Source: a virus. From it: 64,000 nucleotides of DNA. The stretch's first letter is position 1, and each line of letters opens with the position of its first letter. Where the stretch lies: IMG/VR virus record IMGVR_UViG_3300009149_000011, positions 32,001 to 96,000 of that record. One strand, 5' to 3'. Under the pieces are notes generated by a model. That model was not told where the DNA came from. It ran no database searches and was given only the letters and a program-made list of their open reading frames with translations. Both the position numbers and the translations under genes were made by a program. Shown here in pieces: positions 6,026 to 49,249 of the stretch.

Positions 6026-6039
6026 ATGTAGCTTTATTG

Positions 6040-6120
6040 TGGGAGTAGCAGGGATCGAACCTGCACGTTGTTAAACCACGGAGTTACAGTCCGCTAAGCC
6101 ACCAGTTGCTCAATACTCCC
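6040..6120 (-). tRNA. tRNA-Tyr(GTA)
   Basis: GCGGA-CTGTAAC-TCCGT, long variable arm. Confidence 0.9.
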
Positions 6121-6121
6121 A

Positions 6122-6673
6122 TTAATTTTGTTTTGCTATAAAACTATCTCTGTATTTATTTACTCGCTCTGATATCAAATTTTTATATCTACTATGCATA
6201 TACATATGATGTGTAGGGCATAGTGGAATCAGATTATCTGGAGAGTTATTTTTTCTATCCTCATCATAATGATGAACATCTATAATTTTATCTTCTTCAC
6301 AAATAACACATTTTTTCTTATGATAATAAAAGCAAGTACTTCTATAAGCGTCATCTTTCCAATTAGGGTGATTAACTCCAGATCTATAATACGTATTAGC
6401 GCAAGAATGAGAACAGGTCACTTTTTCTTTAAGGCCTCCCAATCTTGTTTCAAATTTACCTAAACATATTGGACACTCTTTTTGGATTATGTCATATTTA
6501 ATATTTCTCTTAGATAACCCGCCATCAAAATGACTAACGTCCAACGAAAGGTCTTCAATCATTTTGGTGATTTTTCTTCGCCCTCCACCCCCAGTTACAT
6601 ATCCCATCTTTCTACATACATCGGATTTGCTTTTTGAACTTTTGACAGCTTCAATTAATTTTTCTTTATTCAT
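6122..6673 (-). CDS. HNH homing endonuclease
   Basis: CVIC...DVHHYDEDRKNNSPDNLIPLCPTHH. Confidence 0.9.
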   Translation of the reverse strand: MNKEKLIEAVKSSKSKSDVCRKMGYVTGGGGRRKITKMIEDLSLDVSHFDGGLSKRNIKYDIIQKECPICLGKFETRLGGLKEKVTCSHSCANTYYRSGVNHPNWKDDAYRSTCFYYHKKKCVICEEDKIIDVHHYDEDRKNNSPDNLIPLCPTHHMYMHSRYKNLISERVNKYRDSFIAKQN

Positions 6674-6762
6674 TATTTTTATTATAAATAATCAAATAAA
6701 AGTATACCACACATCTTTTGAATATGATTGTCCAAAAGTTGTAAGGTGTACCTAGTTTTATG

Positions 6763-6858
6763 TCAGGAGTGGGGGATTCGAACACCCGAACCACACTAAC
6801 TGTGCGCAGTTATCCGTGTCCAAAACGGATGCCTTAAACCTTACTCGATCAATTCCTG
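6763..6858 (-). tRNA. tRNA-Pro(TGG)-like with atypical long variable arm
   Basis: TCCGT-TTTGGAC-ACGGA; extra arm AACTG..CAGTT. Confidence 0.6.
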
Positions 6859-6896
6859 ATATCTCAAGGGAGTATACGCCTTACCCAAGAACTGCG

Positions 6897-6983
6897 TGGT
6901 GGGAGCGAGAGGGATCGAACCTCCTATCCATGCGGATTACCAGGGTTACAACCTGACGCCTAACCAATTTGTGCATCACTCCC
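6897..6983 (-). tRNA. tRNA-Tyr(GTA), CCA encoded
   Basis: TCAGG-TTGTAAC-CCTGG. Confidence 0.85.
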
Positions 6984-7003
6984 AATTTATGTGTCCTACT
7001 CCA

Positions 7004-7090
7004 AGAAGCAGACTGGACTCGAACCAGCGATCTTCGGCTTGGAATACGCAAATGCTTTTCCGACGCTCTATCCAACTGAGCTACAACCTC
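7004..7090 (-). ncRNA. tRNA-like RNA with enlarged anticodon loop
   Basis: Canonical D arm (TAGCTCAGTTGGATAGAGC) and T arm; 22 nt between TCGG and CCGA. Confidence 0.55.
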
Positions 7091-7285
7091 TCTTCAGACA
7101 CATACTTAATAGCTTCATCTACTTTATCAGATTGTTGCTTCCTTTCATTAAACTTTTACTTTCAGACCTGTCCAGCTCTTCCCTGGATCACAGTTTTTAA
7201 GGTCTAGCCTTTGCGTATGTTATCGTCCAGCTAATCGTTTAATTTCCAGAAACACTTCCCATCCATTTCCTTGAAGTGTTCGGTG

Positions 7286-7360
7286 TGGAGGATATCGGAG
7301 TCGAACCGATGACCTCTGCAGTGCAAGTGCAGCGCTCTAAGCCAGCTGAGCTAATCCCCC
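7286..7360 (-). tRNA. tRNA-Ala(TGC)
   Basis: CTGCA-CTTGCAC-TGCAG, G3:U70. Confidence 0.92.
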
Positions 7361-7418
7361 AAATATAATTCTATGCAGCTACTCTATAAGCTCTATGAAT
7401 TATTAACAGTCTCTCTCG

Positions 7419-7492
7419 TGGACACATACGGGCTTCGAACCCGTGACTCCTGGGTGCAAACCAAGTGTGATAGCCAACTTCACCAACGGCCC
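7419..7492 (-). tRNA. tRNA-Ala(TGC), divergent
   Basis: CTTGG-TTTGCAC-CCAGG; imperfect acceptor stem. Confidence 0.7.
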
Positions 7493-7503
7493 AAATATTA
7501 TTA

Positions 7504-7580
7504 TGGCGGTCCAGAAGGAATTCGAATCCTCAATCTCTCCCGTGACAGGGGAGCAACATGCGCCGATATGATGCTGGACC
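7504..7580 (-). tRNA. tRNA-Asp(GTC), CCA encoded
   Basis: CTCCC-CTGTCAC-GGGAG. Confidence 0.8.
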
Positions 7581-7660
7581 ATGGTGGAGGGATTTTAGTT
7601 GACCTGCAGGATCAATTTAACTTTCACCACCCCCCGATGTGAATCACAATGAAAGTATTG

Positions 7661-7736
7661 CGGGATATACGGGATTCGAACCCGTGACCTTCTGCGTGAC
7701 AGGCAGACATCCTAAGCCAGACTAGACCAATACCCC
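7661..7736 (-). tRNA. tRNA-Asp(GTC)
   Basis: TCTGC-CTGTCAC-GCAGA. Confidence 0.92.
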
Positions 7737-7944
7737 AATTAAAATTATCTATCCATTTCTAAGTGGAATATTTTCATTGACAAACGATCTGCTTTCACAG
7801 GCAATCCCTCAATATCTTACAATAAACAACGTCATCTTAGCATGACTATAAAACTTACCTAACGAACCTATCTCTGCCGCTCTAGGAGGTGTAGGGATTC
7901 AACCCACTTCATAGTTTTACTGCTTATCTTCAGTAGATAATTAG

Positions 7945-8017
7945 CTCTCGCGCCTGGGCTTGAACCAGGGACCATCGGAGTAACAATCCGAAGCTCTACC
8001 AGCTGAGCTACACGAGA
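7945..8017 (-). tRNA. tRNA-Asn(GTT)
   Basis: TCGGA-TTGTTAC-TCCGA. Confidence 0.9.
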
Positions 8018-8019
8018 AT

Positions 8020-8585
8020 TTACACTTTAATGATTCCAGCATGTATCTCTCTATGACAATTAGAACACACTAAAATACATTTATCAAGTTCTTTTTTTAC
8101 TTTATCCCAAGAGTAACAATAACCTCTATGGCTTAAGGAAAAATCTTTTTCATTAGGATCAATGTGGTGAAACTCTAAAGCTCCGATATACTTGTCATAT
8201 CCACAACACTGACATTTTTCACCTTTATAATCCACGGCCATATCTTTAACTTTTCTCCTTCTTTTTTGTACAGCTTCGATTCCCCTCTTTCTTTTTTCTT
8301 CCAGAGAATAGGTTTTATTTTTTTCAGCTGAATATAATTTGTAACAGTACTCCTGCTAAATCCAAATTTTTCAGCCACTTTATTACTTGACCCACATTCA
8401 TCATAATACCTTTGCATATCAGAAATTGTATTTTCATCTATTCTTAAATCAGGAGCTCCAATACCAGCTTTTCTGCAATGATGAGAGACAGTGGATTTAG
8501 AACACCCTAATTCTTCGCTTATCTCTTTGTAAATCTTACCTTGTTTTCTTAGATCAATAATCTTACCTTTTAGAACACTTGTCAT
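8020..8585 (-). pseudogene. HTH-HNH endonuclease split by a frameshift in an A7 run (about 8318-8324)
   Basis: ORF 8175-8585 (HTH) continues in another frame into CQCC..LEFHH..CSNCHREIH (8020-8241). Confidence 0.75.
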
Positions 8586-8642
8586 ATAAATTAATTTTTA
8601 TTGTTAATCTAAAAAGACGAAGGTCTAAAGTAAATAGTTTTG

Positions 8643-8715
8643 AGAATCATCTGAGACTCGAACTCAGATCTCTAAGTTTAACAAACTTGCATTTAAGCTA
8701 TTAAACTAAAAGTCC
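8643..8715 (-). pseudogene. degenerate tRNA-Asn(GTT)
   Basis: T arm intact, loop TTGTTAA, acceptor stem mismatched. Confidence 0.55.
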
Positions 8716-8722
8716 TTTTTTG

Positions 8723-8896
8723 CTGTAGGAGAAGGATTCGAACCTTCAAGGTGCAGTTACCGATTAGACATTTTGCTTACTCTAAGTATTTTAATGCTTA
8801 GTGGTCAATCCATTATCTAACGTTTATCCCGTGATCACCGCCTTCGAGACAGGAAGGTGCGTTTGCCCAGACCGAAGTCCGTTTCGCCACCCTACA
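8723..8896 (-). ncRNA. large tRNA-like RNA (174 nt), GTC loop, about 95-nt variable region
   Basis: Acceptor TGTAGGG/TCCTACA; CCTTC-CTGTCTC-GAAGG; GAAGG-TTCGAAT-CCTTC. Confidence 0.7.
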
Positions 8897-8912
8897 ATTT
8901 GTTATTACCAAC

Positions 8913-8947
8913 ATGTCAAAGAACTGGAAGTAAACTTTTTTACTTCT
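8913..8947 (-). promoter_or_regulatory. rrn-type boxB hairpin plus boxA-like antitermination element
   Basis: GAAGTAAA..TTTACTTC hairpin followed by AGTTCTTTGACAT. Confidence 0.5.
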
Positions 8948-8949
8948 CG

Positions 8950-9023
8950 TCGGAGCAGTAGGATTCGAACCTACGACCTCACCCCTCCAAAGGGCGTAAA
9001 CAACCTGACCGTTATCTACTCCG
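8950..9023 (-). tRNA. tRNA-Pro(TGG)
   Basis: CGCCC-TTTGGAG-GGGTG; C1:G72, A73. Confidence 0.85.
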
Positions 9024-43340: not shown

Positions 43341-44153
43341 TTAAATCTCATCTAAAGGATTACTCAGTCCCAAAAGCCACCTCTTGTATAACTCTGTATT
43401 TTCTTCTTTCCACGCATTGAAAGTTGTTTTATTCCTACCTCTATGCTCTGGGTATAACAACCAGCATTGAGTTGATTGCGTATATTCCTTTGAGTCAATA
43501 TCCATAATTGATAGAGATCCATCATAGGTAGCTCCAGTATCCATGGCCCAGAAGTTTTGCCATTTCTGAGGAGTGTCATATTCTCTACCAAACCCTATGG
43601 TTGGCGTATGCCCTACATATATCTCTTCCCACCTGCCGTCTGATAGCATGCCATTTTCTTTATCTTTATTATTAAAAGCGTGCTTTATCTTGTCTCTAGG
43701 CCATAGGAAATGATAATCGTCAGCAAGATCTAATTTTATAGCTACATGAGGAGGCCCAGCATGAGCAAAGAATTTAGTGTTGTCATCAATTATATGATAA
43801 AGTTTGCCCTCTTCTAGGAATTTTAAATATTTAGGATCTATATCCTCTGGATTCTTACCTAATGATTTAAGAGTAGCCTCCCCACCTTGTTCAAACCATG
43901 CCCCATAAGGGCCTTGTTTCATTTCTTTTTTATAAAACTGAAGACTCCACTCATCGTGATTACCTCTAAGGTTGGTAAATTTTTTAATCTTAAGCAATTC
44001 ATCAATACACTCTTTCACCTCTGGTTAACCATCGCACACGTCCCCTAGCCCAATTAGCTCATCATTATCATAATCAAAACCAACTTTATTAAGAACTTGT
44101 ATTAAAGCTTTATAAGCTCCATGAATGTCTCCTATAACGTATCTTTTAGCCAT
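43341..44153 (-). pseudogene. PPP-family metallophosphoesterase interrupted by TAA (44027-44025)
   Basis: MAKRYVIGDIHG..LGDVCDG*PEVKEC..RGNHD..HAG..GHTP..DTG, all in one frame. Confidence 0.8.
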
Positions 44154-44583
44154 TTTTACCAAAATAATTATTAGCCTTTTGTTTTAATTCTGTAATTTTA
44201 TTGTTAAAAGTATCATCAAGAACTTTTTCCCTAAGATTCAAATATTTTAAAACTATTTCTGAAATATCAATCTTACCTATCTCAATGGATGGTTTTGAAT
44301 TTTGTTTGAATGCATCATGGCCAGAAGGCACAAAGCTGGTCTCACCCCCTAAGTAAACTGTGACATGAAAAAATTTTTTAGAAACTTCTTCAAAAGGCAT
44401 GTCTTCCTTTACTATAAACTGCTTATCATTGCTAATAAAAAAAGCATACAAACCCTTATCAAGCCTTAATTGTACCATACCTTGATATGTGTATACAGAT
44501 ACTTTACCCGTATACAAATCGGTATCATCCACTACAGTTTCTACAGCGTTAACGAGATCTTGTTTTATTTTTTCTAAATCCAT
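44146..44583 (-). CDS. hypothetical protein
   Basis: ORF. Confidence 0.65.
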   Translation of the reverse strand: MDLEKIKQDLVNAVETVVDDTDLYTGKVSVYTYQGMVQLRLDKGLYAFFISNDKQFIVKEDMPFEEVSKKFFHVTVYLGGETSFVPSGHDAFKQNSKPSIEIGKIDISEIVLKYLNLREKVLDDTFNNKITELKQKANNYFGKNG

Positions 44584-44626
44584 AAATCAATTTAAACAAA
44601 AAAGTGTATAAAAACAAAAAGAGAGC

Positions 44627-44926
44627 TTAAAGCTCTCTTTTTTCAATCCATGCATCACCTGAAGCGATTAATTGGTCAATGTATCCCATTGGCGAATTTC
44701 CTGGCGGCAAGGTTTTGATGTTCTTAAAACCATTTTCTTCTTTGATGATAGAATCATCTGGATGTACTGCGCCAGGATTCTTGCTTCCATATGATCCAGT
44801 AAACTTTTTAGTTATTGGATCATAATCTCCCCACAACTTCTTTTTACCGACATAGGGATCAATCGGTTCTACACAAAAAAGTCTCCCCTCTTTTGTGCGT
44901 ACATAATACCTTCCTGTTACGCTCAT
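44627..44926 (-). CDS. hypothetical protein
   Basis: ORF. Confidence 0.7.
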   Translation of the reverse strand: MSVTGRYYVRTKEGRLFCVEPIDPYVGKKKLWGDYDPITKKFTGSYGSKNPGAVHPDDSIIKEENGFKNIKTLPPGNSPMGYIDQLIASGDAWIEKREL

Positions 44927-44927
44927 C

Positions 44928-45185
44928 TTATTTATCTTTTTGGTCTTTCAACCAATATTGTTTCTGCTGACGTACATATTTGTTATCTCCGCTGCACATC
45001 CAGCAATTACACGGATTAAGAGTAGTTCTTAAAAATGTACAATCCTTTCCGCTGTACACATCTTTAATATACTGTTCTTTACTTGTTGAGCTATACACCC
45101 AACTAAATTGAGTCCAAATCCTTACTCTCCTTCTGAATTTAGTCTCCGAGATTTTTCTTCTCTTTGCTTTTTTATAATCTTTCAT
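44928..45185 (-). CDS. small basic Cys-containing protein
   Basis: CNCWMC motif. Confidence 0.65.
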   Translation of the reverse strand: MKDYKKAKRRKISETKFRRRVRIWTQFSWVYSSTSKEQYIKDVYSGKDCTFLRTTLNPCNCWMCSGDNKYVRQQKQYWLKDQKDK

Positions 45186-45270
45186 GACTTATCAGGTTAT
45201 GGCCATTATCCCTAAGCTGGGATAACGACTCGTTACCTGAACAAGTCTTTATCTTTATTCTTCATAAACA

Positions 45271-45969
45271 CTAATTTATAATTCCATATTTTTTTGCCCA
45301 TTTCCTAACAGCATTATCACTAACTCCATACTTTTTACCAACCGCAACAAAAGACGTTTCACCCAACATCTTTCTCAACTCTTTTTCAGTGGGTCTATTT
45401 TTTACTTTTCTATAAAACACTGTTCTCAATTTCTTTGTTTCATTAGAACAGGTTTTACATTTTTTAGCCTTTTTTGTTTTTATGTTTCCACAATCACAAA
45501 AATACTTAATTTTAGTATTTCCCCCTGCGAAAGTTGTAGTCTGACTATGACAATTCGGACATAAGAGACTTAGATTTCCCAACCTATTATCATTATTAAC
45601 GCCATTTTTATGCTCTAACTGCAAAGATATTGGTTTATTATTCCATTCTTTTATACCGCACTCTTCACATCTATACTTCAAAACTCCTTCGTTTACCAAC
45701 CTCCTCTTAAGACTAGATCTATTTTGATATGTTGAATTCGCTATCAAAATATCTTCTAAAGGCATTTTATCAGAAGTACTAAAAGAAAATCTTCCATTTG
45801 TTTTAAACTTTGGAAGATGTACACCTATTCTATCGCAATGAATCCTAAGAGTTTTATAAGCTCCAGACCCATTAGAGTTTACACCAATACTTTCTAGCAT
45901 TTGCCTTATGGACGAATGCTTGGAGATTAGATCTTCTATCTGATCTTTAGTTAAATCTGCAATTTTCAT
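45271..45969 (-). CDS. HNH homing endonuclease with C-terminal HTH
   Basis: CEEC..LQLEHKNGVNNDNRLGNLSLLCPNCH; YGVSDNAVRKW. Confidence 0.9.
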   Translation of the reverse strand: MKIADLTKDQIEDLISKHSSIRQMLESIGVNSNGSGAYKTLRIHCDRIGVHLPKFKTNGRFSFSTSDKMPLEDILIANSTYQNRSSLKRRLVNEGVLKYRCEECGIKEWNNKPISLQLEHKNGVNNDNRLGNLSLLCPNCHSQTTTFAGGNTKIKYFCDCGNIKTKKAKKCKTCSNETKKLRTVFYRKVKNRPTEKELRKMLGETSFVAVGKKYGVSDNAVRKWAKKYGIIN

Positions 45970-46017
45970 TTTTCTCTATAAATAGTGAGAAAAACTCGAA
46001 CCTTGCAAATGGTTTTG

Positions 46018-46092
46018 CACACCCGATAGGACTCGAACCTATAACCTTCGCTTTTGGAGGGCGCTGCTCTGACGCAATTGAGCTACGGATGC
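46018..46092 (-). tRNA. tRNA with CCA (Trp) anticodon on an Arg-like body
   Basis: Loop CTCCAAA; acceptor GCATCCG/CGGGTGT; weak anticodon stem. Confidence 0.65.
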
Positions 46093-46098
46093 ATATTG

Positions 46099-46185
46099 TA
46101 GAGAGTATGGGATTCGAACCCATGTATCGCTTTCGCGATAACACGCTTTCCAAGCGTGCGCCTTAAACCACTCGGCCAACTCTCT
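46099..46185 (-). tRNA. tRNA-Ser(GGA)
   Basis: CACGC-TTGGAAA-GCGTG, long arm. Confidence 0.92.
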
Positions 46186-46295
46186 AAGTAAGAGAAGTAA
46201 GGGTAGCGTGTACTTTGCATCCTTACTTTCGATTTCCTTCCGCATGCCAAACGCCCTTTATCAGGAACGAAGACCTCCAGTCACCTATCTCTCTG

Positions 46296-46381
46296 CGGAG
46301 AGGGTGGGGTTCGAACCCACGCAGCTTTTACACCCTAACGATTTAGCAAAATGTCCCCTTTAACCACTTGGGTACCTCTCC
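46296..46381 (-). tRNA. tRNA-Ser(GCT)
   Basis: Loop TTGCTAA, long arm, imperfect stem. Confidence 0.8.
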
Positions 46382-46409
46382 GTAATAAAGCTTTCGCTTT
46401 AAATATTTG

Positions 46410-46483
46410 TGACCCAGAGAGGATTCGAACCTCTAACGATTCGGGTAGAAGCCGAACATTCTATCCAGTTGAATTACTGGGCC
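46410..46483 (-). tRNA. tRNA-Arg(TCT)
   Basis: TTCGG-CTTCTAC-CCGAA. Confidence 0.92.
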
Positions 46484-46489
46484 ATTTAG

Positions 46490-46563
46490 TACCGATGGAG
46501 GGACTCGAACCCCCGACACTTCCCTGATGAGGGGAACGCTCTACGCAACTGAGCTACATCGGC
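46490..46563 (-). tRNA. tRNA with CAT anticodon (Met/Ile), Thr-like acceptor, C37
   Basis: TTCCC-CTCATCA-GGGAA. Confidence 0.7.
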
Positions 46564-46568
46564 AAATA

Positions 46569-46647
46569 AAGAAAGACTGGGATTCGAACCCAGGGACCTC
46601 AGTCACCGCGTTTCGCGCGGCACAATCAACCACTCTGTCACCTTTCT
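46569..46647 (-). tRNA. tRNA-Ser(CGA)-like with 5-nt anticodon loop
   Basis: CCGCG-CGAAA-CGCGG; Ser-type D arm and variable arm. Confidence 0.6.
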
Positions 46648-46649
46648 AG

Positions 46650-46737
46650 CAGAGGATTTGGGACTCGAACCCAAACGGCTTTTACACCCAACGGTTTTCA
46701 AGACCGCGACCCGTAGACCAACTTGGTTTAACCCTCT
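46650..46737 (-). tRNA. tRNA-Ser(TGA)
   Basis: GCGGT-CTTGAAA-ACCGT, long arm. Confidence 0.9.
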
Positions 46738-46755
46738 GTATTAATTCTTAAGCAT

Positions 46756-46787
46756 AAAAAAACCCCGACCAATTAAGGCCAGGGTTT
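46756..46787 (-). terminator. attenuator terminator before tRNA array 2
   Basis: CCCTGGCC-TTAATT-GGTCGGGG-T7. Confidence 0.85.
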
Positions 46788-46813
46788 CTGTAAATGTTTT
46801 ATTTCTTATGCTC

Positions 46814-46915
46814 TTAGAAAATAACACATACCCCAGCCGTTGAACTTGATCTACTAGACCAAGATCTCGATCTTGACGATCTTGACATGTTGTTGTATGT
46901 AATTGTTGTTTTCAT
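46814..46915 (-). CDS. Ser/Arg-rich leader peptide (33 aa)
   Basis: MKTTITYNNMSRSSRSRSWSSRSSSTAGVCVIF*; antiterminator GGCTGGGGT (46838-46830). Confidence 0.8.
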   Translation of the reverse strand: MKTTITYNNMSRSSRSRSWSSRSSSTAGVCVIF

Positions 46916-46978
46916 TTCGTATAAATAGTTAAACTTTTAACAAACTTAATAACTCTAACGTTAAAACGCAAGAAAATG

Positions 46979-47200
46979 TTACTTTTTTTTATTTTTATCT
47001 TTCTTTTTTTTATCAAAAAAGAATGCTACGTGATAAATAATTGTTAATATAGTGGTTATATATAGCCCTGTAGCGCTTCCACTGTAGTAATAGCTTCTTG
47101 AAGAAATAAAATAAGCTCCCAGCATAACTGCAAGTAAAATTATTGACTTTGGCCCCATTGAAGTATAAATGTGCTTATAAAAATCTGATATCTTTTTCAT
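46979..47200 (-). CDS. small membrane protein
   Basis: Two TM segments, basic tail. Confidence 0.6.
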   Translation of the reverse strand: MKKISDFYKHIYTSMGPKSIILLAVMLGAYFISSRSYYYSGSATGLYITTILTIIYHVAFFFDKKKKDKNKKK

Positions 47201-47234
47201 AGTCTTTTTATATAAATAGAAAATAATATCGTTT

Positions 47235-48158
47235 TTATGATCCTATAGATTTGGACGCGCCACCTACATATGTTTGTATTCTTCCATATATTTCTTGAAC
47301 TGACGTATTTCTTATGTTGCTCTGAACTACTGAGAAATGATGGTTTGAATGTGGGTGAAACATTAAGTTTAGATGATTGTCCTCCATGTTGTTATAAACG
47401 TCTTCATCCCAAACCGCTTTATCAACAAGTATAGTATCTCCCTCGTTATAGTAATCGTATAGACCTTTTTCTTTAATTACGAAAAGCCAATATAGACAAT
47501 ACTCAGTCCATCTAATTTTTGAATCACCTGCCGAATTAGGGCATAATTTTGACAATTCTTCTACCCAATTTTTATCTTTAAAAACTTTTACGCATAAATG
47601 CTCCATCAACTCCTTAACTAGAGAGGTGTGGAGTATTTGAGGGGTGCAGCCTGGAACTCTCTCCTTGAGATCATAATCTATTTCATACCCCATGATCTCG
47701 GCAGTATTTTCCCACCAGTCTTGATGTGTATGATATGGTATGGTTCCAATTTTCGCCTTCCCATTAACTATTAAATCGCTAAATGAAGTATGTCTTGTTG
47801 CAAACATATCAGCGTCTAGCAGTATATAATGATCAGTTTCTATATGCTCTGATACTTTTAATTTAAGGATTTGCTGTTTAAACCATCCTGAAGAGAAGTT
47901 GATGCTGTTATCAATTAATTGACTGTCAGGTATCAATCTAATGTTTAAGGGGGAGCTTTTAAGCGATTCCATATGTTCCAAGTCGTTGTCTGGACATATA
48001 TATATCACCTCATGCAGAGAGTCTCTATCCACAAACTTTTCAAGAGAAGGGCTAAGCATCATATGAACTCTTGCCAGGTCATTTATCTTGTGCCCTTCCC
48101 AATCTTCTCTACTAGCCCTACTTACAGCTATTACGAATGTAATTTTATTATTCACCAT
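47235..48158 (-). CDS. GT-A-like (DUF6492-like) protein
   Basis: GWFKQQILKL, LLDAD, WTEY. Confidence 0.65.
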   Translation of the reverse strand: MVNNKITFVIAVSRASREDWEGHKINDLARVHMMLSPSLEKFVDRDSLHEVIYICPDNDLEHMESLKSSPLNIRLIPDSQLIDNSINFSSGWFKQQILKLKVSEHIETDHYILLDADMFATRHTSFSDLIVNGKAKIGTIPYHTHQDWWENTAEIMGYEIDYDLKERVPGCTPQILHTSLVKELMEHLCVKVFKDKNWVEELSKLCPNSAGDSKIRWTEYCLYWLFVIKEKGLYDYYNEGDTILVDKAVWDEDVYNNMEDNHLNLMFHPHSNHHFSVVQSNIRNTSVQEIYGRIQTYVGGASKSIGS

Positions 48159-48900
48159 CTAACATCCACTCATATTTAGTTCCAGATATCCCTTCAGCTA
48201 CTTCATCGTAGTTTTCTAAAATTTCTCTCAAAGGAAATGGGTTTGTCTTTTTTAAATAAAAACAAGGCTCCTGTTCAGACTCAAGGTTTACAAACTTCAA
48301 AACCTTATCATAAGCTATTCTAGGATCATCTTTAATATCTTCTTCATAAGATATCTTAAGTAAATCATCATCCTTTAGTATTTCGCTCATTTCTAAATAC
48401 CACTCATCCATAGCTGGGAACAACGTGTTAACTATCCAATTTACATCACCTAGATCAATCTTAGTAATGTTATTCACCTCTGTGTTTGAATGCCAGTATC
48501 CATTTTTCTTAGCAACCATAGCTGAAACATATCTTCTTAGGTAATTTTTTCTATCCATAATAATGAATTTATTAATTCCCGCTTTACCTTTAATAGTATC
48601 AATATACTCTCTAGGAGTCATGTTTCTCACCTCATCACTCATATGCACATTACTGTACTTAAATGGCATTGTTTCAAAAAAATAAGCCTTTTTTTTATAT
48701 GCAGTGGATACCTGAATTCTACTTACCAAGTAAGGGAATATAGGCGTATCCATCGGCTTTGTAAATATATCCAAATCATGTTCGACATTACTTGGGTTGT
48801 ATAACTTTATTGTATTATTAATCAAATGGCTCCCACATCTACCTAGATGTAGAACAGCCACTTTTTCAATATCACCACCGCCTAAGTTAACCGTAACCAT
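48148..48900 (-). CDS. Stf0-like sulfotransferase
   Basis: GRCGSH, R.NYLRRYVS, ISYEED. Confidence 0.7.
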   Translation of the reverse strand: MVTVNLGGGDIEKVAVLHLGRCGSHLINNTIKLYNPSNVEHDLDIFTKPMDTPIFPYLVSRIQVSTAYKKKAYFFETMPFKYSNVHMSDEVRNMTPREYIDTIKGKAGINKFIIMDRKNYLRRYVSAMVAKKNGYWHSNTEVNNITKIDLGDVNWIVNTLFPAMDEWYLEMSEILKDDDLLKISYEEDIKDDPRIAYDKVLKFVNLESEQEPCFYLKKTNPFPLREILENYDEVAEGISGTKYEWMLDGE

Positions 48901-48901
48901 A

Positions 48902-49249
48902 TTACGATAATAATTTCTTTAAAGAATCTTTATCATCATTGATTGATGATATCATTGCATCAAATTCAGCTAGTTTTTGTTCCCAGAAACCCTCAGATTG
49001 TTCTTCTCCCATTTTATACCAAGTAGTCTCCTTAAATTCTACCCCGTCCATTTCAGTGAAATAGTCATCAAACATATCCCTTGCTTCAAATTGAGCAATA
49101 GGAAATCCCATTCCACCTGGAGTCTCCATAGATTCTGGATAAAACAACCCAGGCTTATCTCCATATTCTATAAACACTTCATCCTTTACAAATAAAGATC
49201 CGATCGTTACAAGATCTTTTTTTAATTGTACCTTTCTTACTTTTCCCAT
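48902..49249 (-). CDS. hypothetical protein
   Basis: ORF. Confidence 0.65.
   Translation of the reverse strand: MGKVRKVQLKKDLVTIGSLFVKDEVFIEYGDKPGLFYPESMETPGGMGFPIAQFEARDMFDDYFTEMDGVEFKETTWYKMGEEQSEGFWEQKLAEFDAMISSINDDKDSLKKLLS

Follow-up and report, generated by a model that had tools for sequence, protein, structure and literature searches.

Control of transcription by a translated leader peptide is known from enterobacterial operons such as ilvGMEDA (Ile/Leu/Val), thr (Thr/Ile), trpL, hisL, leuL and pheL, which carry a promoter-proximal short open reading frame (ORF) with regulatory codons. Four RNA regions of these leaders can form the pairings 1:2, 2:3 (antiterminator) and 3:4 (terminator), and the ribosome position decides between them. 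In Escherichia coli, leader-peptide attenuation at the pheM leader controls the synthetase operon pheST by sensing the decoding of cognate codons. Attenuation in operons for amino acids and for aminoacyl-tRNA synthetases has been reviewed (reference 7 in PMC4833913). Phage transfer RNA (tRNA) genes, in contrast, are usually seen as constitutive codon-usage supplements or as replacements for tRNAs destroyed by host defence, and to our knowledge their control is largely uncharacterised. Here we analysed a stretch of 64,000 nucleotides (nt), called the window below, which covers bases 32001-96000 of a 149-kb IMG/VR virus record (IMGVR_UViG_3300009149_000011). In this window a block of phage tRNA genes follows a cassette, named G1, which has a promoter-proximal ORF and a predicted four-region build like those of the enterobacterial leaders. 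Its closest described counterparts are the multivalent ilv and thr leaders, in which codons for several amino acids are mixed, together with pheM-pheST.

A sequence-only reading of the locus had interpreted it as a trp/his-type attenuator placed on a tRNA operon. That interpretation was supported by our results. The cassette recurs, its leader codons covary with the anticodons of the downstream array, and its antiterminator covaries with its terminator. We give a probability of about 0.8 to the view that each such cassette is a ribosome-mediated (leader-peptide) transcription attenuator controlling a block of phage tRNA genes.

Architecture of cassette G1

The cassette lies on the minus strand in the order promoter, 33-codon ORF, intrinsic terminator, tRNA array (46971-46738 up to the array). 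Its parts are as follows.

46941..46971, minus strand: promoter read from the sequence, TTG (46971-46969), 20 nt, TAAGTTTG (46948-46941)
46922..46932, minus strand: 11-mer TTAACTATTTA in the 5' leader, common to cassette G2
46814..46915, minus strand: leader ORF of 33 codons plus TAA, MKTTITYNNMSRSSRSRSWSSRSSSTAGVCVIF
46884..46897, minus strand: putative region 1, predicted to pair with region 2 in nascent RNA (anti-antiterminator state) in the minimum free energy (MFE) fold
46841..46888, minus strand: regulatory run, codons 10-25, M S R S S R S R S W S S R S S S
46829..46839, minus strand: region 2, antiterminator strand CGGCTGGGGTA, codons 26-29, from duplex and nascent folds
46756..46789, minus strand: intrinsic terminator (regions 3 and 4), AGAAACCCTGGCC / TTAATT / GGTCGGGGTTTTT + TT, predicted free energy -20.1 kcal/mol, with 5' arm 46789-46777, loop 46776-46771, 3' arm 46770-46758 and T-run 46762-46756
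46017..46737, minus strand: array of seven tRNA or tRNA-like genes (ARAGORN, Rfam, alignment)
46737-46649, minus strand: Ser-TGA
46647-46569, minus strand: degenerate Ser-type tRNA-like gene, from alignment
46563-46489, minus strand: Met-CAT
46483-46409, minus strand: Arg-TCT
46381-46295, minus strand: Ser-GCT
46185-46098, minus strand: Ser-GGA, past a 109-nt spacer
46092-46017, minus strand: Trp-CCA

The promoter is predicted to be of the Bacteroidota sigma-A type (-33 / -7), and the ORF begins 25 nt past the TAAGTTTG -7 box. The leader, its array-read codons, the T-run hairpin ahead of the first tRNA and the complementarity between them had all been pointed out by the sequence-only reading, and each was found in place. 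A 24-nt spacer separates the stop codon from the terminator, and 18 nt separate the terminator end from the first tRNA. The segment GGCTGGGGT (46838-46830) is complementary to CCCTGGCC of the terminator 5' arm over 9 bp (-17.2 kcal/mol), and just 0.2-1.3% of shuffled leaders equalled this antiterminator duplex.

Leader codons of G1 match the downstream array

Codons 10-25 of the leader use only ATG, TCA, AGA, TCG, TCT, TGG and AGT. All 16 are decoded by Ser-TGA, Met-CAT, Arg-TCT, Ser-GCT, Ser-GGA and Trp-CCA of the array, the TCG codons being read by the TGA anticodon via wobble. Conversely, all six canonical anticodons of the array are represented in the run. The earlier claim that every array anticodon is represented therefore stood for the six canonical tRNAs, but not for a 'CGA-like' one, which is the degenerate gene at 46647-46569. 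This gene has Ser-type acceptor, D and T arms, with an anticodon arm about 7 nt short (6-bp stem and 5-nt loop). ARAGORN labelled it Phe-GAA, and no Rfam tRNA match was obtained at E<=1; it was rejected as a decoder for the shortened anticodon arm and the absence of an Rfam tRNA match. The 109-nt spacer between Ser-GCT and Ser-GGA (46186-46294, minus strand) contained no tRNA, Rfam match or fold above shuffles (z 0.31).

As a control, all 590 ATG ORFs of 20-45 codons in the whole 149-kb record were compared. The longest array-read run was 16 codons in the G1 leader versus at most 5 in the other 589. Codons of the G1 array made up 50% of the leader versus 14% of the long ORFs of the phage (binomial p 1.6e-6). 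The match was also specific for the reading frame, with 16/32 triplets read by the array in frame versus 1/32 and 2/32 in the other frames.

The cassette recurs in the same phage

Two further cassettes were found in the 149-kb record, G2 within the window and G3 outside it.

9262..9292, minus strand: G2 promoter, TTG, 20 nt, TAAGTTTG
9096..9209, minus strand: G2 leader ORF of 37 codons, MKRANINIANNYPCNAGNPDYDRNRGLGDVIFDIISW
9126..9135, minus strand: G2 region 2 AGGACTTGGA, complementary to CCAAGTCC of the terminator (-15.1 kcal/mol)
9038..9072, minus strand: G2 intrinsic terminator AAAGAAACCCAAGTCC / GAAA / GGCTTGGGTTTTTTT, 14 nt upstream of the first tRNA
6039..9023, minus strand: G2 array of Pro, Asn, Asn, Asp, Ala, Tyr, Pro, Tyr with interspersed ORFs (ARAGORN)
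genome 26412-26323, minus strand: G3 leader ORF MKRMTNIISRIIGQGQGQVIFTLRDSYVF, in a cassette at genome 26491-26260, about 5.5 kb before the window start

In the G2 leader, 16/36 codons are read by its own array versus a background of 0.20 (p 9e-4), which placed it first of the 590 small ORFs. Its segment GGACTTGG complements the 5' arm of the G2 terminator, and for pairing with this terminator the own leader ranked 1 of the 10 cassette leaders considered below. The G3 leader holds 'RIIGQGQGQVI' upstream of Gly, Ile, Gln, Ile, Arg-ACG, Gln, Val, Met, Val, and its segment GGGATTCG is complementary to its own terminator. The leaders of G1, G2 and G3 each fell in the top 1% of small ORFs for their own array.

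The three cassettes also share the motif TTG-N19-21-TAnnTTTG upstream. The record has 19 copies of it on the gene strand as against 2 on the opposite one (5.2 in shuffles), a strand bias that fits use of Bacteroidota host sigma-A. The 11-mer TTAACTATTTA has only 2 copies in the whole record, each 6-12 nt upstream of a leader ATG.

Some side observations concern these regions. Relaxed ARAGORN settings added Asp-GTC (7504-7580), Ala-TGC (7418-7491) and Leu-AAG (7003-7091) on the minus strand of the G2 array, and the G2 leader contains one CTT codon. A small ORF and tRNA-like sequences lie between the G3 terminator and the first called tRNA. The promoter motif was seen upstream of a two-piece transfer-messenger RNA (window 25154) and a Pth2-like gene (window 33431), and a leaderless copy lies directly upstream of tRNA-Gln at genome 24534. 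A fourth promoter copy at genome 1821 was rejected as a cassette; an ordinary gene of 105 amino acids follows it.

Cassettes in other phages

The G1-array tRNAs gave blastn matches in Cellulophaga phages, whose tRNA regions carry cassettes of the same build. A blastn search for homologous arrays in other phages gave these same Cellulophaga phages only. Tenacibaculum phage Gundel_1 has 10 tRNAs (PMC8776804) and was picked beforehand as a test on account of that number; a cassette was found at both of its tRNA blocks (2/2). The cultured flavobacterial phages contributed seven cassettes from three lineages, namely three from Calle_1/phi38:1, two from phi4:1/phi17:2 and two from Gundel_1.

Calle_1/phi38:1: leader MKTIMNIATDIRTKGVKLLGRSRVL, array Lys, Ile, Gly, Met, Asp, Thr, Val, Arg-TCT
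Calle_1/phi38:1: leader MKTNMTYNNFSWYSNCSFSSYNVERLYLS, array (Tyr), Ser, Ser, Asn, Trp, Phe, (Cys)
Calle_1/phi38:1: leader MNARLLHQEPLEQLRLPS..., array Pro, Glu, Gln, His, Leu, Arg-ACG
phi4:1/phi17:2 (P4_c): leader MKIQRLHLQELEQPIISGGTGV, array Pro, Glu, Gln, His, Leu, Leu, Arg-ACG
phi4:1/phi17:2: leader with GTG start QLTKTGITVIDKTKGARAYLGDTVIG, array Ala, Lys, Ile, Gly, Met, Asp, Thr, Val, Arg, Met, Tyr
Gundel_1: leader MKTKLYSYSCFSSWFKNRAG, array (Tyr-like), Trp, Phe, Ser, odd tRNA, Ser
Gundel_1: leader MKTNNLHIQQNNLPVFLEGFLYM, array Pro, Gln, Met, Asn, Leu

The correspondence can be read directly from the peptides. The Calle_1 leader segment 'YNNFSWYSNCSFSSYN' stands upstream of Tyr, Ser, Ser, Asn, Trp, Phe and Cys (the Tyr and Cys tRNAs being called at relaxed ARAGORN settings only), and the P4_c run 'QRLHLQELEQP' stands upstream of Pro, Glu, Gln, His, Leu, Leu and Arg. 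The G1 leader N-terminus MKTTITYNN is similar to MKTNMTYNN of a Calle_1 leader. Within the regulatory run, phi4:1 and phi17:2 differ by a single synonymous substitution (CCG to CCA), and the differences between phi38:1 and Calle_1 all lie outside the run.

A narrow pattern scan of IMG/VR contigs gave three clear cassettes and one weak one, with leader amino acids following the tRNA sets.

L064: cassette upstream of Tyr, Ser, Asn, Trp, Phe, Cys
L073: cassette upstream of Pro, Glu, Gln, His, Leu, Leu, Arg
L109: leader MKTNQSYQFNFNHESN..., array Tyr, Asn, Gln, Glu, Phe
L122: weak case, with Phe as the sole tRNA called behind it and an antiterminator duplex no better than shuffles

A leader ATG just 4 nt past the TAnnTTT(G/A) -7 box was seen in several cassettes of Cellulophaga and Tenacibaculum phages (L004 2208-2226 and 3448-3466, L005 446-463, L023 22925-22939 and 23577-23589). 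The mRNAs from which such leaders are translated may be leaderless or nearly so.

Covariation over ten cassettes

The core statistics used ten cassettes, G1, G2 and G3 plus the seven from the cultured phages, and the codon matches were counted with strictly called tRNAs. In G1 and the nine others a short ORF lies directly downstream of the promoter. Leaders matched their own array at 58% of residues (48% of codons) versus 29% (22%) for the other arrays. None of 200,000 random re-pairings of leaders and arrays reached the observed codon match. When re-pairing was restricted to within phages, the true pairing alone attained it (1/144). In the frame test, 48% of codons matched in frame versus 14% and 16% out of frame. 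The covariation of leaders with anticodons in homologous loci, on which the sequence-only reading had staked its case, was therefore found.

The antiterminators gave a similar result. All ten leaders have a segment complementary to the 5' arm or loop of their own terminator (-11 to -19 kcal/mol), located within codons 16-29 and just past the matched run in every case. The antiterminator sequence varies along with each terminator. Summed over the cassettes, own pairings reached -149 kcal/mol versus about -98 kcal/mol for mismatched ones, and 0/200,000 re-pairings were as good.

An ordinary layout was considered as an explanation, in which a chance or otherwise functional small ORF stands beside a constitutive insulating terminator and the tRNAs come from other promoters or from leakage through that terminator. 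AT-rich phage DNA is rich in small ORFs and terminators, and in G1 the Ser/Arg run coincides in part with a tandem repeat of 9 nt and with a palindrome that has four GATC sites. We rejected this cluster as a DNA-level explanation because the GATC sites result from Arg codons followed by Ser codons (AGA-TCN) and belong to G1 alone, none being present in the other cassettes. Moreover, the cassette has its own promoter, there is no promoter room past the terminator, and the chance probability is below 1 in 200,000 for each of the two covariations. The ordinary layout is already disfavoured, and we consider it scarcely credible.

The terminator hairpins are G+C-rich (-13 to -21 kcal/mol) and followed by T6-8. 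Nine of the ten cassettes have 23-27 nt between stop codon and 5' arm, and in eight no more than about 20 nt separate the terminator end from the tRNA or tRNA-like gene that comes first. Structured 5' leaders do occur on tRNA precursors, and hairpins this close to the first tRNA could suggest a processing or stability element of the precursor, or a 5' cap-like structure, with the ORF translated incidentally or not at all. Such an element would leave unexplained the in-frame codon match (48% versus 14-16%), the covariation of leader with array and the conserved distance of 23-27 nt between stop codon and hairpin, and the hairpins bear the U-tract typical of terminators. A processing element is thus very improbable as the function of these hairpins.

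Folding of the nascent leader RNA

An attenuator needs mutually exclusive structures, which the sequence-only reading had expected around the G1 terminator. Its alternative pairing did appear, but in nascent-RNA folds only, before the 3' arm exists; the equilibrium fold retains the terminator. In nascent-RNA folds, region 2 was predicted to pair first with the regulatory-codon region (5-13 nt in MFE folds). For G1, 8/11 nt of region 2 were predicted to pair with leader nt 19-32 (MFE fold of the RNA up to region 2). When the leader was masked, as a stalled ribosome would do, and the 3' arm was not yet made, the 5' arm paired with region 2 in all ten cassettes.

Proposed mechanism

From these features we infer translation of the leader, activity of the terminator, coupling between the two and a physiological trigger. 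Transcription would start from the Bacteroidota-type promoter, with a ribosome on the short leader close behind the polymerase. The central codons that this ribosome meets would be those of the downstream tRNAs, in G1 Ser TCA/TCG/TCT/AGT, Arg AGA, Met and Trp. If decoding is fast, the ribosome would pass region 2 (46839-46829) to reach the stop codon and would cover this region, the hairpin at 46789-46758 would form and transcription would stop 18 nt before the tRNA. If an aminoacyl-tRNA is scarce, the ribosome would stall in the run, the free region 2 would pair with the 5' arm and the polymerase would enter the array. With no ribosome on the leader, region 1 would sequester region 2 and termination would be the default.

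Since the terminators end no more than about 20 nt before the tRNA in 8/10 cassettes and leave no promoter room, the arrays should be reachable by readthrough only. Because the sensor would respond to the very product of the block (tRNA), each block would be under direct negative feedback and would be supplied on demand. Candidate triggers are codon-usage mismatch, host tRNA loss, anticodon nucleases and amino-acid starvation. The phage tRNA set is probably made only when its codons decode slowly.

The same attenuator could answer to another signal, namely amino-acid supply or general translation capacity, with tRNA output tuned to the nutritional state. Leader attenuators respond to aminoacyl-tRNA, and a missing tRNA cannot be distinguished from an uncharged one, as established for trp and his; the analyses here do not separate an input of tRNA abundance from one of amino-acid supply. 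However, extra tRNA gives no relief of amino-acid starvation, so the feedback loop would not close, and the block-by-block match of leader and array is what product-specific feedback predicts. A nutritional signal is therefore unlikely.

A more specific proposal is that each cassette senses, independently of the others, when particular tRNA species are damaged or depleted, and that the cassettes act as an inducible, self-limiting counter-defence and tRNA homeostat that is widespread across phages of several host phyla. The response would be set off, for example, when host anticodon nucleases cut tRNAs or when host tRNAs decay following shut-off, and a replacement block would be induced only once its codons start stalling ribosomes. 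We hold this proposal tentatively and regard it as less likely than not.

Several observations weigh against the attenuator as we propose it. Equilibrium folds retain the terminator in 9/10 cassettes, even with a ribosome masked on the run. This is usual for attenuators and requires a kinetic switch, for which we judged folding at equilibrium under a masked ribosome to be the wrong test; the nascent-RNA folds were used instead. In G1, a ribosome held up at any of the final 4-5 regulatory codons would sit on region 2 and thereby promote termination, which leaves signalling to the early part of the run alone (codons 10 to about 20). Host tRNAs also decode the leader codons. The antiterminator duplexes of two cassettes in the core set (Ca_a and P4_c) are weak, with shuffle p of 0.08-0.09, and that of the IMG/VR contig L122 gave 0.51. 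The second phi4:1/phi17:2 cassette (P4_d) has no ATG and requires a GTG start. For the conservation of G1 itself, a search through the neighbouring DUF6492 protein in IMG/VR and JGI metagenomes gave no close relatives, and a database search with the exact G1 leader DNA gave no match.

Genome context

The 149-kb record was estimated by CheckV to be 46% complete. The DUF6492 protein is encoded at window 47235-48158 on the minus strand, and an identical copy is present on a contig of 494,080 nt, which suggests that the phage has a full genome of perhaps about 0.5 Mb. A syntenic relative of this protein (64% identical) lies on a Logan contig, which stops after an ORF of 73 amino acids, that is, at the cassette. 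In a search for relatives with the promoter plus 11-mer pattern, two matches were obtained and rejected as chance, both lying inside ordinary genes.

The ORFs at window 45271-45969 and 6122-6673 (both minus strand), beside or within the tRNA arrays, contain Cys pairs and an HNH-like motif. Pfam gave a weak HTH_50 match for the first and weak HNH_3/HNH_2 matches for the second. They probably encode homing endonucleases, as in the tRNA regions of T4, T5 and Gundel_1.

Comparison with known systems

Like the tRNA arrays of T4, T5 and vibriophages, the arrays described here are clusters of tRNA genes, among which homing endonucleases and tRNA-like RNAs are often encoded. However, a leader-terminator cassette is neither annotated nor detectable in the tRNA region of T5. 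This region has small ORFs as well as tRNA-like RNAs and homing endonuclease genes, but junctions of a terminator with a tRNA were not found in it. T5 was therefore rejected as a precedent, and the layout is not general to phage tRNA clusters. In Caulobacter phage phiCbK (JX100813.1 47000-53000), annotated terminators lie directly upstream of tRNA blocks. Its gp083, a Ser/Leu/Pro/Lys-rich protein of 45 amino acids, is upstream of Pro, Pro, Lys, Lys, three Leu and two Ser tRNAs, and MSKTYRQFVRQIQVVRNI... is upstream of Phe, Val, Ile, Ile, Val, Gln, Gln. In the part of this phage that was checked, the resemblance of leader and array was judged by composition. These terminators and composition-matched small ORFs suggest that the layout may reach past phages of Bacteroidota.

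T-box riboswitches of Firmicutes also tie readthrough of translation-related genes to the state of tRNA through a choice between terminator and antiterminator. Unlike the T-box, which binds uncharged tRNA through a specifier loop and T-box sequence and has no ORF, the present element of about 160 nt carries a translated-looking leader ORF, and no T-box match was given by Rfam in window 44000-49000. The Rfam leader families likewise gave no match at E<=1 in the same interval. A Gundel cassette gave a sub-threshold match to Phe_leader (27.9 bits against a cut-off of 55, E 0.058), which we count as a resemblance to a known attenuator. The cassettes are outside the Trp_leader, His_leader, Leu_leader, Thr_leader and Phe_leader families of Rfam, and their targets are tRNAs.

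As the sequence-only reading had stated, no phage system of this kind appears to be described; a full-text literature search, which covered few subscription journals, found no description of a phage tRNA array controlled by sensing of decoding. If the proposal is true, this would be the first case of a classical leader-peptide switch controlling tRNA genes, in which the phage gauges decoding speed codon by codon and feeds it back on tRNA supply. The cassettes would predict which tRNAs share one regulatory unit, and each would be a naturally occurring sensor that reports how available many tRNAs are at the same time. They would also account for the recurrent 'hypothetical' mini-ORFs and terminators annotated inside phage tRNA regions. 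Cultured systems are at hand in Cellulophaga phi38:1 and phi4:1, Tenacibaculum Gundel_1 and, apparently, Caulobacter phiCbK.

The enterobacterial leaders differ from these cassettes in several respects. They control biosynthetic enzymes, whereas tRNA genes are controlled here. The phage leaders sample up to 6-10 amino acids with at least one codon per downstream tRNA, the ORF includes region 2 in its 3' end, and the phage is one of Bacteroidota-type hosts. The pheM/pheST system is similar in that leader-peptide attenuation acts on a component of the decoding apparatus. It is chromosomal and serves a synthetase for one amino acid, whereas the product here is tRNA itself, with several tRNA species per sensor, so the feedback would be direct. 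In conclusion, the comparison suggests that this is a known type of switch on a new target, the trp/his/ilv-type layout applied to tRNA genes.

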